Of a stretch of DNA of 11,860 nt, positions 509 to 10,253 are shown in pieces. A program made the position numbers and the translations under genes. The number at the start of each line of letters is the position of its first letter. Position 1 is the first letter of the stretch. This stretch comes from Candidatus Woesearchaeota archaeon. Its GTDB lineage: Archaea > Nanobdellota > Nanobdellia > Woesearchaeales > SKGA01. Under the pieces are notes generated by a model, which worked only from the letters and a program-made list of their open reading frames with translations, did no database searches and had not been told where the DNA came from. The stretch spans positions 1 to 11,860 of the forward strand of contig JAFGOT010000018.1 of NCBI GenBank assembly GCA_016926395.1, in the 5' to 3' direction.

Positions 509-1660
509 CTATTTTTGTTTAAATTTAATCAAATCGTATTTTTGACCACCACTTTGAACAGGAATAGTTTGAAATACTTTAAAACCGTGCTTAGATGCCA
601 TTTCGATTGCTTCATCGCTATGAATAAGAAGAACTGCTAAAACTCCTTTTTTAGAAAGAAGGTATTTGCCTTGATAAAAAAGATCATCATATACTTTGGT
701 TATTTGTTTTTGATTACCATTTCGATTACTAATTTGAGGGGGGTTTGTAATAATTAAATCAACTTCTCCTTGTTCAAATTTTGAATCAACCCAATCAATA
801 TCCACTTTAGAGAGTGTGATTGAAGTAAACACTCCACTTAGTTTAGCATTCTTTTGAGCGCCCTTAATAACTTTTAACATATTATCAAAACCAAAGACAG
901 AGATTTCTTTTGAAAGTTCCTTGTCAAGAATTTGTTTACTAACTTCTTCAAAACTAGATTTAAGGATTGGAATTCTAAATCCTGTAAACTTGTTTTCATA
1001 AGGAAAAGAGCTGGTTTCTTCTTTGTATGTTGCAACTTCTATAGGAATTGTACCTCCACCACAAAATGGGTCCACAATTAAACTATCCTTTGTCATTCCA
1101 GACAAACGCGCAATAGTATATGCGATGACTCCATTGATTGATCCGGAGTGTAGTGCAATTTTATATGGTCTTTTGCTAAGTGAAAAACCAATAACATCTA
1201 ATGAAATAACTAACTCAGAGTCAGTAATTATAGCAAGTATTGGTAAATCTGGATTCTTAAGTTTAACATCTAATTCTTTTTTTGATTGATTAAAAAACCA
1301 TTCTCCAACACTTGATGAAACATCAGGACTCGGTATAGAGACTTCGCCGTCTTTGACAGTTCGAACACCAAAAGAATTTGCATCTTTCAAAAATAAATCG
1401 AGTGTTTTTTGATCAAATTTCTTCTCTATCTTACTAAGGGAGTCTTCAACTGTTCCACTAAATTTATCTTTCCCAAGAAGAACGCCTAAATGAATGGCGC
1501 TTTGAAGTCTAAATGAAAGGATAGCAATCTCTTTAGGACTAACATCTTTTATGATTGTTAGTTTATCTTCGCCAGTAACTTTCTTTTTACCAACTAAAGC
1601 GATGATGTCTTCTTTAACGATGTCTTTAGCGCCCTGATAATGATGAATAATTAAATCCAT
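509..1660 (-). CDS. THUMP-domain class I SAM-dependent RNA methyltransferase (COG0116; RlmL/Trm14-like, probable m2G)
   Basis: 383 aa. It has an N-terminal THUMP-like region, 'AYTIARLSG...IVDPFCGGGTIPIE' (motif I), 'VFGFD' (motif II), 'AQKNAKLSGV' and 'IITNPPQ' (motif IV). The insertion after motif I resembles RlmL-type members. The substrate cannot be determined from sequence. Confidence 0.85.
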   Translation of the reverse strand: MDLIIHHYQGAKDIVKEDIIALVGKKKVTGEDKLTIIKDVSPKEIAILSFRLQSAIHLGVLLGKDKFSGTVEDSLSKIEKKFDQKTLDLFLKDANSFGVRTVKDGEVSIPSPDVSSSVGEWFFNQSKKELDVKLKNPDLPILAIITDSELVISLDVIGFSLSKRPYKIALHSGSINGVIAYTIARLSGMTKDSLIVDPFCGGGTIPIEVATYKEETSSFPYENKFTGFRIPILKSSFEEVSKQILDKELSKEISVFGFDNMLKVIKGAQKNAKLSGVFTSITLSKVDIDWVDSKFEQGEVDLIITNPPQISNRNGNQKQITKVYDDLFYQGKYLLSKKGVLAVLLIHSDEAIEMASKHGFKVFQTIPVQSGGQKYDLIKFKQK

Positions 1661-4642: not shown

Positions 4643-5359
4643 ATGGAAAACAACCTTGACTTAGGACAACACTTCATGAAAGATGAAGAAATATTAGAAA
4701 AAGTAGTTAACTCTTCAGAAATAAAAAATGACGAAATAGTTCTGGAGGTTGGAAGTGGTGAAGGGGATTTAAGCAAAAAAATACTTGAAAAAAATCCTCG
4801 AGAACTTATTTGTGTTGAAATAGATTCTAGATTCAAAATTTATGATGATAGAATAAGTTTTATTCAAGGAAATATTTTAGAAGAAATAGAAGATATAACT
4901 TTTGACAATTTTGTAGCTAACATTCCATATCACATCAGTGAACCATTGCTTATAAAATTAATACTTCGTAGAACAAAAAAAATTAACATGGTTTGTGGGA
5001 AAAAATTTGCAGACGCGTTATTTGGAGATTCAATAATTGGATTAATCACAAGATTTTCTTATGATATAGTTTTAGTTGAAACTATTTCGCCAGAAAAATT
5101 TATTCCTCCTCCAAAAGTCAATTCTGCATTAGTAACTCTAAGATATAAAAAAGAAAGCGATATATTTCTAACCTTTTATGAACATCAAAAACAAAAGGTA
5201 AAAAACTATATTTTGACAATTTCAGAAGGTAAAAAGACTAAAAATGAGGTAAAACTTCTTTCAGAGACTATAGCGGACTTACTTGATAAGAATTTATATA
5301 CTCTAAATTTAGAAGAATACAAACAACTCTATAACTTTATAAATAATAACTTACTTTAA
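4643..5359 (+). CDS. ksgA: 16S rRNA m6,2A dimethyltransferase KsgA/RsmA/Dim1
   Basis: Motifs LGQHFM, VLEVGSGEGDLS, CVEID, ANIPYHIS and FIPPPKVNS. It starts 7 nt after the pepN stop. Confidence 0.92.
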   Translation: MENNLDLGQHFMKDEEILEKVVNSSEIKNDEIVLEVGSGEGDLSKKILEKNPRELICVEIDSRFKIYDDRISFIQGNILEEIEDITFDNFVANIPYHISEPLLIKLILRRTKKINMVCGKKFADALFGDSIIGLITRFSYDIVLVETISPEKFIPPPKVNSALVTLRYKKESDIFLTFYEHQKQKVKNYILTISEGKKTKNEVKLLSETIADLLDKNLYTLNLEEYKQLYNFINNNLL

Positions 5360-5374: not shown

Positions 5375-6571
5375 ATGGAACGCACATTTAAGGATTTGAT
5401 ATTGTCTTTGTTTCCTTTATCAAAAAATCACAAGTTAACAATAAGTAAGTTATCTAATGACTTAAAACCTGAGCAAATAAAAGATATAAAATATTTGTTA
5501 AAAACAAAGAAAATAGGAATTGTAACAACGCCAACAAGAATATCCAAAGAACTGGCTCATTTTTCTGCTTACACACAATTTCAAATAATGATTGAAAATC
5601 CTCAAGTGCAGACTTTCATAAATGATATTAATCATCAAGTAAAAGAAAGTTCTCAAAGAAATTCATATCATTCGTTTTCAAAACATGCATATGAAAGATT
5701 AGTGCGATATATTGCTCCAAACATTTTGGGTCTTGCTGAAATAAAAGAATCAGTATTGTTATTATTATTTTCAAAAGAAAGATTTCACATTTTATTAGTT
5801 GGTGATCCTGGAACTGGAAAAACAGATATAATAAGATCGGCACAAAGATTGGCTCCAATATCTTCGTTCGGACTTGGATCGGGAACAAGCGGTGCAGGTC
5901 TTAGTGTTTCAATGAAAGGAAAAGAATTGGAACTTGGATTACTTCCTCTTGCCCATCAAGGAATTTGCTGTATTGATGAATTAAACTTAATGCAAGTTCG
6001 AGATCGAGCCGCACTATATAGTGCTATGGAAAAAGGTTTTGTAACTTATGATAAAAAAGGAATGCATAAACAAATCCCTGCAGAGATAAGAATACTGGCA
6101 ACGGCTAACCCTGTTGGAGATAAATTTGTTGGAAGAAGTTTAAGTGTATTAAAAGAACAATTACCTTTTGATGCAGCATTGCTATCTCGATTTCACTTAT
6201 CTTATGTTATTAGAGAACCAGACGCTCATAAACTTGCAACCATTGCTAAAAAAATAGTTAAAAGTGATTCAATAAAATTAAGAGAAGAAGACTTAGAATA
6301 CATAAAAGGCTACATTGAATATTCATTAAAACAAGATGTAGAATTTGACAAACGTTATGCGCAATTAATTTCTGATTTTATTGAAGATGTAAAAACTAAT
6401 GAAAGTAAATATGTTGTAGAAATAGGCCCTCGATTAGTTCATGGAATAATGAGATTAGCACAAGCAAGGGCGAGAATAGAATTACGAGACAAGACAACTA
6501 AAGAAGATGTTTTAGAAGCAATAAGGCTTGTTAAAGATTCCCTATATATTGAAGACATAGTTCGTCCTTGA
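5375..6571 (+). CDS. Minimal MCM-family AAA+ ATPase lacking the canonical N-terminal domain and C-terminal winged helix
   Basis: Motifs IAPNILGLAEIKE, Walker A GDPGTGKT (from 5801), Walker B CCIDE (5966-5980), pre-sensor-1 hairpin VTYDKKG, sensor 1 ATANP, Arg finger LLSRF (6188-6190) and sensor 2 GPRLVHGIMRLAQARA. SD GAGGT lies upstream. The protein is only 398 aa. Confidence 0.88.
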   Translation: MERTFKDLILSLFPLSKNHKLTISKLSNDLKPEQIKDIKYLLKTKKIGIVTTPTRISKELAHFSAYTQFQIMIENPQVQTFINDINHQVKESSQRNSYHSFSKHAYERLVRYIAPNILGLAEIKESVLLLLFSKERFHILLVGDPGTGKTDIIRSAQRLAPISSFGLGSGTSGAGLSVSMKGKELELGLLPLAHQGICCIDELNLMQVRDRAALYSAMEKGFVTYDKKGMHKQIPAEIRILATANPVGDKFVGRSLSVLKEQLPFDAALLSRFHLSYVIREPDAHKLATIAKKIVKSDSIKLREEDLEYIKGYIEYSLKQDVEFDKRYAQLISDFIEDVKTNESKYVVEIGPRLVHGIMRLAQARARIELRDKTTKEDVLEAIRLVKDSLYIEDIVRP

Positions 6572-6579: not shown

Positions 6580-6643
6580 TCCCTCAGATAACTCTCTTCT
6601 CATCACTAAAAAGTTTCAGACGGGAATAACCTCATCATAGGGA
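6580..6643 (-). ncRNA. Box C/D 2'-O-methylation guide sRNA
   Basis: The minus strand reads UCCC-U-AUGAUGA(C)-GGUUAUUCCCGU-CUGA(D')-AACUUUUUA-GUGAUGA(C')-GAAGAGAGUUAU-CUGA(D)-GGGA. All four boxes match consensus, both guides are 12 nt, and a 4-bp terminal stem UCCC/GGGA with a 3-nt bulge gives K-turn geometry. There is an upstream TATA-like element and a downstream T5 run. Confidence 0.92.
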
Positions 6644-6666: not shown

Positions 6667-6674
6667 TTTAAAAA
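6667..6674 (-). promoter_or_regulatory. TATA-like box for the C/D sRNA
   Basis: TTTTTAAA on the minus strand lies 24-31 nt upstream of the sRNA 5' stem at 6643. Confidence 0.5.
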
Positions 6675-6702
6675 TTATTTGATTGCTCTTACTTTAACAA
6701 AA

Positions 6703-6763
6703 TTTATAAGTGCCGATTTGACTTTTAATGTTGGTTCTTTGGTTAGATTAAACATTTGAGGTG
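6703..6763 (+). promoter_or_regulatory. TATA box (6703-6709) and SD (6758-6763) for the dehydrogenase
   Basis: CAAAA-TTTATAA, then GAGGTG 9 nt before ATG 6773. Confidence 0.55.
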
Positions 6764-6772
6764 TTATATTTT

Positions 6773-7777
6773 ATGCAAATAAGCTTTTTCGAACTAGAAA
6801 ACTGGGAAAAAGAAATTTTTCAAAAAGCATTACCAAAACACAAATTACTTTTCGACCCAAAACCATTAACTGCTAGAAATGCTCTAAAGCACAAAGACAG
6901 CGAAGTATTGGCGATATTTGTTTTCTCAAAAATAACTAAACAAGTTTTAGACAAATTTTCAAAACTAAAATATATTGCGACAATGAGTACTGGATTTGAT
7001 CATATTGATTTAGAGGAGGCAAAAAAAAGAGGAATAAAAGTTTCTAATGTTCCTTTTTATGGACAAAATACTGTGGCTGAACACGCATTTGCTTTACTTC
7101 AAGCATTAAATAGGCACATTGTAGAAGCAGTTTGGAGAACAAGAAATCAAAAATTCGATTACAAAGGTTTGATGGGATCTGATCTTGCAGGAAAAACAAT
7201 TGGTATTTTGGGAACTGGAAACATTGGCCAACACATGATTAGATATGCTAATGCATTTAACATGAATGTTATTGCCTATGATAAATTCAAATCACTGGCT
7301 TTAGAAAAAAAACTTAACTTCAAATATGTGAGTTTGAAGAAACTTTGCACGACTGCTGATTTTATTTCTTTGCACTTGCCTTTGGTTGAAGGAACTTGTC
7401 ACATAATTGGTGAAAAAGAATTTGATGTTATGAAAAAAAGTGCGATGATAATTAACACTGGTCGAGGACCTTTAATTGACACAAAAGCTTTGATTGATGC
7501 TTTGAATAAAAATAAAATTGGAGGAGCTGCTTTAGATGTTTTGGAATTAGAAGATGATTTAAGAAAAGAAGCAAAAATGGCTTCATCAAGTTTTGTTAAT
7601 CCTAACAGACTTCACGGACTTGTAAAAAATCATGCATTACTTCACAAACCTAATGTTATTGTAACTCCTCATCTTGCATTTTATACTCGAGAAGCAGTCA
7701 CTAGAATAATGGATACTTCAGCTCAAAATATTAAAGGTTATATTAATAAAAAGTATAAGAATTTAGTAAAAATGTGA
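6773..7777 (+). CDS. ldhA: D-isomer-specific 2-hydroxyacid dehydrogenase, D-lactate dehydrogenase-like
   Basis: Motifs STGFDHID, VSNVPFYG..VAEHA, GILGTGNIG (NAD-binding), INTGRG (catalytic Arg), ALDVLELE (Glu) and VTPHLAFYT (His). Start re-called to ATG 6773 after SD GAGGTG. The lactate substrate is an inference. Confidence 0.85.
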   Translation: MQISFFELENWEKEIFQKALPKHKLLFDPKPLTARNALKHKDSEVLAIFVFSKITKQVLDKFSKLKYIATMSTGFDHIDLEEAKKRGIKVSNVPFYGQNTVAEHAFALLQALNRHIVEAVWRTRNQKFDYKGLMGSDLAGKTIGILGTGNIGQHMIRYANAFNMNVIAYDKFKSLALEKKLNFKYVSLKKLCTTADFISLHLPLVEGTCHIIGEKEFDVMKKSAMIINTGRGPLIDTKALIDALNKNKIGGAALDVLELEDDLRKEAKMASSSFVNPNRLHGLVKNHALLHKPNVIVTPHLAFYTREAVTRIMDTSAQNIKGYINKKYKNLVKM

Positions 7778-8625: not shown

Positions 8626-9642
8626 TTGACAAAAACAAAATATCATAACATATCGATACTTACTTCTGATGTCTATGCTAAGGCAGGGTCCAAAATATTT
8701 GTTGAATTTGATCGAGGGAAAAAAAGCGATTCTGCTGATGACAAAAATCTGCTAGTTCTTCCAAGAGATATATTCGATGAATTAAAATATTTAAAGAAAA
8801 ATCCCAAATATCAAAATAAGCTCGAAGAATTTTTTTCTGATTTAGATAATTATACTTCTAAAGGAATGAATAATTGCCCGATAGAAAATGATAAAGATAA
8901 AAAATTAAACTTTTCAATAGGTCAAATTTCAACTGGTTTAGATATTGCATTAGTCGATGGAGCTTCTGATTTAAGTTATTTAGTTAATTCTCTTGGTTCT
9001 TTTAATCCTGATGAATTAAAAATAATTTCTTCAAATCCCGAAACAAGATTTGATTACAAATCTAAAAAATTACCTGTCGAAGCTCCAAAAATATTATTGG
9101 GGGATATTTCTATCTTAAATCAAGGAGTAATAAATGGTTCTAAAAACTTGGAAGCTAGATTAAATGAAGTAGAAAATAATATTCTTCCAATTGAAGAAGC
9201 AGAATCATTTTTTGATAAAAAAGAGCTTTATATGAATCAAGTTGTGCGACTTGGAAAAGAAGATTATGCAATAGTTGAAGGCGATATTAGTCGTGGACGA
9301 TGGGGTGCGATAAATAGAGCTGATAATGTGCGTTTGAGATTGTTACATCCTAGAGAAAAGTCAAAAAAAATAATTTTAGGAAAACAAGTAATGCCTTCGT
9401 TTATTGGTTTGACACCAAGAGATATGACTCAGTATATTGCATTACAATATGGTTTATTAAATCCTAATGTTTCGTTGTTATTTTTAGTTGGTGGTGCGGG
9501 TTCTGGTAAAACTCTACTTTCGTATGCTGCAGCAATGTACCAAAGATTGGAATTTTCAGAAAAAGGTTTGAAAGATAAAAACTGGGAAACCCTTTTGCTA
9601 GACCAACTCCTGAACAGGGAACTGATGATCCTTTACACTTAA
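8626..9642 (+). CDS. PIN-PhoH (YlaK/PhoH2-like) protein, N-terminal part: degenerate PIN-like domain, linker and Walker A
   Basis: PIN-like segments 'LLVLPRDIFDELKYLK' and 'LKIISSNPETR', linker 'LYMNQVVRL', and PhoH start 'IGLTPRDMTQYIAL...LLFLVGGAGSGKTLLSYAAA' (Walker A 9490-9513). TTG start with GAGGG upstream. Confidence 0.8.
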   Translation: MTKTKYHNISILTSDVYAKAGSKIFVEFDRGKKSDSADDKNLLVLPRDIFDELKYLKKNPKYQNKLEEFFSDLDNYTSKGMNNCPIENDKDKKLNFSIGQISTGLDIALVDGASDLSYLVNSLGSFNPDELKIISSNPETRFDYKSKKLPVEAPKILLGDISILNQGVINGSKNLEARLNEVENNILPIEEAESFFDKKELYMNQVVRLGKEDYAIVEGDISRGRWGAINRADNVRLRLLHPREKSKKIILGKQVMPSFIGLTPRDMTQYIALQYGLLNPNVSLLFLVGGAGSGKTLLSYAAAMYQRLEFSEKGLKDKNWETLLLDQLLNRELMILYT

Positions 9643-10253
9643 TGTCTAAGTTAAAATATAATGGTAATCGTGCTCCTATTTATTCTAATCTGGTTTTATT
9701 AAAATCGGATAATGCTGCAGGAGGTAGGGAAGTTGGTTTCTTGCCTGGTTCTTTATTTGACAAAATTGTTGATGACTTAAAACCATTTGAAGATGCTCAC
9801 AAGATACTTCATTTTTACAGAGATTTTGAATTTGGAGATTTGATATATCATCAAAACAGAGAGCTACCTAGAATTGGAGGTCCAAGAAGTGCGGCTGCGG
9901 CGAAAGCAGAATATGATAATGGTAAACTACCTATTGGTCCTGCTCTTGAAGTTACTCATTTTTCAAAATTTAGAGGAAGATCTTTTGAGAACACTTTCCT
10001 AGTTGTTGATGAAGCACAAAACTTTACGCCGCAAGAAATGCAAGTTATAATAACTCGAATGGGTACTGGTTCTAAAGTTGTGGTTTTAGGAGATCCAAAC
10101 AAACAAATCGACAATGTTGATTGTACTCGAAACTACAATGGAATTGTCCAACCTGTGGAAGAATTTTTAGATAAACCTTATTCTATGCTTATAAATTTAG
10201 GATCAAAATACCGTTCTGAGATGGCTAAAGACGGTGACGATTGGAATGTATAA
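9642..10253 (+). CDS. PhoH-family ATPase, C-terminal part (frame open from 9579)
   Basis: Motifs REVGFLPGS, FRGRSF, LVVDEAQN, IITRMGTGSKVVVLGDPNKQID and YRSEMA. It lacks a Walker A, which lies in the upstream ORF. Confidence 0.85.
   Translation: MSKLKYNGNRAPIYSNLVLLKSDNAAGGREVGFLPGSLFDKIVDDLKPFEDAHKILHFYRDFEFGDLIYHQNRELPRIGGPRSAAAAKAEYDNGKLPIGPALEVTHFSKFRGRSFENTFLVVDEAQNFTPQEMQVIITRMGTGSKVVVLGDPNKQIDNVDCTRNYNGIVQPVEEFLDKPYSMLINLGSKYRSEMAKDGDDWNV

Follow-up and report, generated by a model that had tools for sequence, protein, structure and literature searches.

Among the 23S rRNA segments predicted to undergo C/D-guided methylation in archaea, helix 69 is a hotspot (PMC4644070). At its nucleotide C1920, the box D guide of the sRNA Neq sR20 is reported to direct 2'-O-methylation in N. 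equitans (Seistrup et al. 2017, PMC5389701), and the authors report having confirmed Cm1920 by MS and RiboMeth-seq, stated in that paper as data not shown. Two further guides, Mma sR104 of Methanococcus maripaludis and Sac sR20 of Sulfolobus acidocaldarius, are predicted to act at alignment position C2186 (PMC4644070 supplement), which is C1920, since A2178 of the same paper is E. coli A1912; both of these marks are predictions for which the supplement cites no mapping. In bacteria the mark is made by a protein: TlyA is described in PMC5778110 as a stand-alone 2'-O-methyltransferase of 23S C1920 and 16S C1409. In eukaryotes the C1920 site seems unused, since the available tables, whose mapping onto this region is approximate, list no ribose methylation between yeast Am2256 and Am2281 (PMC11542601). 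For the Gm guided by snR38/snoR38, the tables do have entries in plants, human and yeast (Gm2815) (PMC11542601). Below we describe an archaeal sRNA in which guides for C1920 and for the snR38-type position appear to be combined. The sequence-only reading of this locus suggested that forming Cm1920 with a guide RNA would be a convergent solution. As a new route this is not supported: with Neq sR20, and the predicted Mma sR104 and Sac sR20, other archaea already provide documented guided methylation at C1920, to which the sRNA here adds an example.

The sRNA lies in a window of 11,860 nt (the whole stretch of DNA that was analysed) from a Candidatus Woesearchaeota archaeon. It is a complete box C/D sRNA of 64 nt on the minus strand (6580-6643), recognized by its boxes, by genome scans and by a covarying terminal stem at the orthologous locus of same-genus genomes. 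Read from its 5' end, it consists of the 5' half of the terminal stem (UCCC, 6640-6643), a single unpaired U, the C box AUGAUGA (6632-6638), a 12-nt D' guide GGUUAUUCCCGU (6620-6631), the D' box CUGA (6616-6619), a 9-nt loop that separates the D' box from the C' box, the C' box GUGAUGA (6600-6606), a 12-nt D guide GAAGAGAGUUAU (6588-6599), the D box CUGA (6584-6587) and the 3' half of the stem (GGGA, 6580-6583), which pairs with UCCC; all of these elements are on the minus strand. The sRNA thus has the archaeal C/D architecture, with C and D boxes joined by a short stem and with D'/C' boxes and 12-nt guides. The sequence-only reading had placed a D-box guide at 6584-6599, and these coordinates proved exact: they cover box D and the D guide, the 3' part of the sRNA, with the complete C/D sRNA around them.

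We asked whether the sRNA is real and whether it has companions in the assembly (G000; 1.02 Mb, 40 contigs, 32% GC, 82.5% complete). Strict and loose pattern scans of the whole 1.02-Mb assembly returned this locus alone, and the reversed-genome control returned none. The generic archaeal C/D model of Rfam, run genome-wide at E<=1, likewise found the locus alone. At Rfam gathering thresholds there was no match in the window. When the thresholds were relaxed, nearly all matches over the sRNA were to C/D families, with snoR38 (RF00213; 40.4 bits against a gathering score of 45) and snoPyro_CD (RF00095; 27.8 against 45) on top, both below threshold. The sRNA is not filed under either family, and the resemblance consists of the boxes and the D' guide. 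The terminal stem covaries across 11 homologues, with compensatory changes such as TGCA/TGCA, GTTCC/GGAAC and ATGTT/AACAT. A guide-pattern scan found the same sRNA in MAGs of Woesearchaeota or Nanoarchaeota as well, which places its host among the DPANN archaea. The proteins of the methylation RNP are encoded in the assembly: fibrillarin (PF01269, 212 bits) and Nop5 (PF01798, 167 bits) lie side by side on contig C33, and proteins of the L7Ae family occur as well (PF01248, 46.5 bits on contig C28). Although fibrillarin, Nop5 and L7Ae are all encoded, this is the sole C/D sRNA detectable in the 82.5%-complete assembly.

The sRNA sits in a 189-bp spacer between a gene for an MCM-like ATPase (5375-6571, plus strand) and a gene for a 2-hydroxyacid dehydrogenase (6761-7777, plus strand), antisense to both. 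A TATA-like element (6667-6675, minus strand) lies ~24-32 nt upstream of the sRNA 5' end, and an A/T-rich TATA-like box precedes most homologues at much the same spacing (~25-33 nt upstream). We take this element to be the putative promoter of the sRNA. Some features of the neighbourhood are recorded here for their own sake. The MCM-like protein (398 aa) has only P-loop and lid domains (Pfam), and it adjoins the sRNA in same-genus genomes at ~60% identity. Genes for a THUMP-domain RNA methyltransferase (509-1660, minus strand) and an RsmA/Dim1-type rRNA adenine dimethylase (4643-5359, plus strand) lie less than 6 kb from the sRNA; these RNA-modification genes form a loose cluster, and RsmA adjoins the sRNA locus in several relatives too. 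Further along the window (8626-10253, plus strand) two neighbouring ORFs meet at 9642, the second of which matches PhoH.

No 23S or 16S (LSU, SSU) rRNA was found in this assembly, and pairing of both guides was computed against 12 full-length 23S sequences of relatives (four from the same genus, three from the sister genus and five from other families of the order). All 12 have the sequence GUAACUAUAACUCUCUUAAGG in helix 69 and, within it, the 11-nt target AUAACUCUCUU, so that both the CUCUC form of the 3' strand and the target are invariant around this lineage. With AUAACUCUCUU, which corresponds to E. coli 1916-1926, the D guide forms 11 Watson-Crick base pairs; the twelfth position is a G/A mismatch. 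The G at 6592, the fifth guide base upstream of box D, faces the equivalent of C1920 (N+5); this numbering, in which the C of AUAAC is 1920, follows from a direct count on rrlH of E. coli and from its alignment to the relatives. The complementarity over 11 nt, the D+5 pair with C1920 and the CUCUC rather than CCCUC strand had all been proposed from the window alone, and each of them holds in the relatives' 23S. CUCUC is, however, not a specifically eukaryote-like form, as N. equitans and Ignicoccus hospitalis have this helix 69 too (PMC4644070 supplement alignment).

The match to helix 69 is hard to obtain by chance. A Watson-Crick run of that length through N+5 occurred in 3 of 2000 composition-preserving shuffles of the guide against a same-genus 23S and 16S, and the duplex has a predicted energy of -13.5 kcal/mol. 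Besides the sRNA gene itself, the assembly contains no other perfect complement of the D guide, and we found no competing site for it in the relatives' 16S or in the 23 tRNAs found. By predicted pairing, the 3' strand of helix 69 is thus the best and only strong rRNA match of the D guide. Other RNAs were considered as targets of either guide and rejected: the best run in tRNAs was 6 nt, and the best sites in 16S had 9-10 Watson-Crick pairs with internal mismatches. As a separate observation, one of the relatives' 23S genes (L013, from genome G024) has an insertion of ~740 nt right 3' of helix 69 (after UAAGGU), past the equivalent of E. coli 1931, presumably an rRNA intron with an ORF.

The D' guide has its predicted target at 23S 2442-2453 (E. 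coli numbering), with G2446, beside the peptidyl-transferase centre (PTC), at N+5. In the 23S of every relative it faces CCGGGGAUAACA, with nine Watson-Crick pairs and one G.U. The Watson-Crick run alone is not significant (equalled in 1411 of 2000 shuffles), and we assign the guide to the PTC because of its conservation, a perfect match in a distant homologue and the partner guides aimed at the adjoining PTC segment. The D' guide is unchanged in all family homologues. Of 400 genomes sampled from the order, 39 have it; two of them (G198 and G350), flagged as unpublished, enter only this count and supply no sequence used here. In the distant homologue (L024) it matches the PTC site perfectly, and the predicted duplex reaches -20.8 kcal/mol. 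In most of the 39 genomes the accompanying D guide is a complement of AGUUACUC (~2434-2441), which directly adjoins the D' site on its 5' side; together the two make a classic archaeal double guide for neighbouring sites. The commonest D' guide of the order has a U facing G2447, for which C would be the perfect partner, and the G is kept in all 12 of the 23S sequences; a conserved G.U wobble thus adjoins the nucleotide predicted to be methylated.

How closely does the sRNA resemble the described guides? Neq sR20 is the nearest counterpart of its D half. The guide sequence, taken from the supplement of Dennis et al. 2015 (PMC4644070), is near-identical to the one here, occupies the same C'-to-D slot, shares its register on the 3' strand of helix 69 and has a G at -5 facing C1920; N. 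equitans is, like our host, a DPANN archaeon with a CUCUC helix 69. The two differ in their other half, as the D' guide of Neq sR20 targets the 3' end of 16S (Gm1530) and not the PTC, and in their fit, as Neq sR20 needs a G.U and terminal mismatches at helix 69 and the guide here matches perfectly over 11 bp. The likeness comes without evidence of common descent. The guide core of Mma sR104 is one base apart from ours (G for A), a difference that is compensatory because its helix 69 has CCCUC in place of CUCUC. In Mma sR104, however, the guide is in the C-to-D' slot, and its partner guide has no predicted target.

TlyA would perform the same chemistry on the same 23S nucleotide, but it is a protein-only enzyme that uses no guide RNA and also modifies 16S C1409. 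A check for tlyA, suggested with the sequence-only reading, found no TlyA, with its S4-like domain and FtsJ-type methyltransferase, in the 82.5%-complete assembly; the best score was 18.7 bits, over profile positions 1-46 only, against a TIGR00478 cut-off of 185.8.

The D' guide, for its part, aligns with the consensus guide of plant snoR38 (RF00213; snR38 in yeast), the guide for 25S Gm2815/Gm2816, and has the same register relative to the CUGA box as in the Rfam family. Its target is likewise a G of the PTC region, the second-to-last one ahead of AUAAC. We take E. coli G2446 to be the equivalent of yeast G2815, a correspondence based on the numbering and the shared guide register and not on an alignment; Gm2446 would then presumably be the site of yeast snR38 and plant snoR38. 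The sRNA differs from snoR38 in scoring below the gathering threshold, in its archaeal size and architecture and in the G.U next to the target nucleotide.

Comparison of homologues revealed that the two guides have had very different histories. The same-genus copies of the sRNA are orthologous, as the flanking dehydrogenase, MCM-like and RsmA genes are common to them. At this orthologous locus the helix 69 guide is intact in three genomes of the genus (G000, the assembly analysed here, G004 and G010) and in two of the sister genus (G014 and G016). In G003 and G017 the D guide has an A opposite C1920 and forms a duplex of ~-7 kcal/mol. In G001, G006 and G012 the D guide has been replaced; the replacements in G006 and G012 matched rRNA no better than shuffles did, and that in G001 has a marginal 9-bp rRNA run (28 of 500 shuffles). 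In the family, 5 of 18 genomes carry a genuine, exact guide to helix 69, and across the order 3 of 400 have this exact guide within its box frame. In one of these three, G045, it sits on another scaffold next to a different D' guide, as it does in L046. Two further guide matches were rejected as chance: L045 (Bacteroides), one of five guide-pattern matches, has no C box, and the match in G011 lies in non-sRNA sequence.

Judged by this distribution, the helix 69 guide is a replacement, confined to some lineages and repeatedly eroding, that occupies a labile slot, and the PTC guide is the conserved function of the sRNA. The Cm1920 mark is evidently dispensable, since its guide varies at the orthologous locus and is exact in only 3 of 400 genomes. 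We note that one copy, L044 (CAYRYC010000004.1), is titled 'uncultured Methanosarcinales archaeon', while its sRNA and flanks match the copy of G004 in the stretch compared; the taxonomic label or the binning of L044 looks doubtful.

Taken together, we put the probability at about 80% that this is an independently transcribed C/D sRNA that guides Cm1920 in helix 69 and Gm2446 near the PTC. This reading is built on the observed anatomy of the sRNA, its conservation, the covariation of the stem, the complementarity to the relatives' 23S, the numbering and the encoded RNP proteins; it takes for granted that helix 69 of the host 23S reads as in the relatives, and that the cell expresses the sRNA and methylates both nucleotides. 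The sRNA, transcribed on its own, would bind L7Ae, Nop5 and fibrillarin to form a methylation-guide RNP. In it, the D guide would pair with the 3' strand and loop of helix 69 (1916-1926), and fibrillarin, brought to the nucleotide that faces the fifth guide base counted upstream from box D, would produce Cm1920 in intersubunit bridge B2a. The D' guide would pair with 2443-2452, next to the PTC, and direct formation of Gm2446.

The turnover of the D slot could instead mean that the sRNA works through the conserved D' guide (Gm2446), with the D slot free and the helix 69 match transient or weakly selected, leading to little or no methylation. Such a reading would account for an invariant D' guide beside D guides that differ among orthologous loci of one genus, for relatives whose D guides fare no better than shuffles against rRNA (G006 and G012; up to four in all) and for the rarity of the helix 69 guide in the order (3 of 400 genomes). 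It is less easily reconciled with the retention of one and the same helix 69 guide by five genomes from two genera of this family, or with its independent appearance on the other scaffold of G045 and L046. A 12-nt archaeal guide can use roughly 10 bp in C/D RNP structures, and the perfect duplex here extends through N+5 to 11 bp, beyond that length; moreover, the same site is a reported or predicted target in three other archaea. We thus regard a free D slot as unlikely. That the D guide is directed at some other RNA (an mRNA, a tRNA or an RNA of the unassembled part), or that the whole element is a chance look-alike, is barely credible. The missing 17.5% of the genome, together with all of the rRNA, leaves some room for another target, but the assembly has no second perfect complement and the best tRNA run is 6 nt, and a look-alike is at odds with zero candidates in the reversed-genome controls and with stem covariation across 11 homologues.

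A different question is posed by the D' guide, which can also pair with GCGGGGGUAACU (1904-1915, the 5' strand of helix 69) at 12 of 12 positions (eight Watson-Crick pairs and four G.U). This segment directly abuts the D-guide site. The guide pairs with both sites because the PTC and helix 69 sequences differ where its U's read ambiguously: two of them can read G-A at the PTC or G-G / A-G in the 5' strand of helix 69. Both guides might then act on helix 69, with the sRNA clamping the whole hairpin as a folding chaperone and also methylating G1908. The pairing is the longest wobble-allowed one of the D' guide in a same-genus 23S, its predicted duplex (-16.3 kcal/mol) compares well with that at the PTC site (-15.6), and from RNP geometry the 1915/1916 junction would fall at the C/D k-turn, where the ends of the guides meet. 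In addition, archaeal double guides often aim at neighbouring sites (PMC4644070). Nevertheless, a wobble-allowed run this long arose in 61 of 1000 shuffled guides, and genomes whose D guide has no relation to helix 69 still keep this D' guide; on these two grounds we consider a double action on helix 69 very improbable. Four G.U among 12 pairs also make a poor guide duplex, and the order-wide partner guide at 2434-2441 argues for the PTC as the selected target of D'. Improbable, too, is the combined form, in which the lone C/D sRNA of a reduced DPANN lineage has been retooled so that both guides seize helix 69 while D' serves G2446 and G1908 alike; if true, a single RNP would chaperone and doubly methylate the bridge B2a hairpin and act on the PTC as well.

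With guided methylation of C1920 and G2446 as the preferred reading, a Woesearchaeota-type DPANN lineage joins the archaea that use a guide RNA for a mark that bacteria make with TlyA. What is new here is that the D' guide is the conserved half of the sRNA, that the helix 69 guide is lineage-restricted and that the sRNA is the sole detectable one of its class. The more useful by-products are evolutionary, namely the turnover of the guide slot and the apparent one-sRNA repertoire. At one orthologous locus, a PTC guide is deeply conserved while the second slot has been swapped, eroded or re-aimed, which makes it a clean natural case of guide turnover. Gm2446 and Cm1920 may form a minimal, two-site guided methylome of this organism; they would be its entire guided methylome if the one-sRNA repertoire holds in the complete genome. 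Such a repertoire, if true, would show which ribose methylations survive longest under genome reduction.
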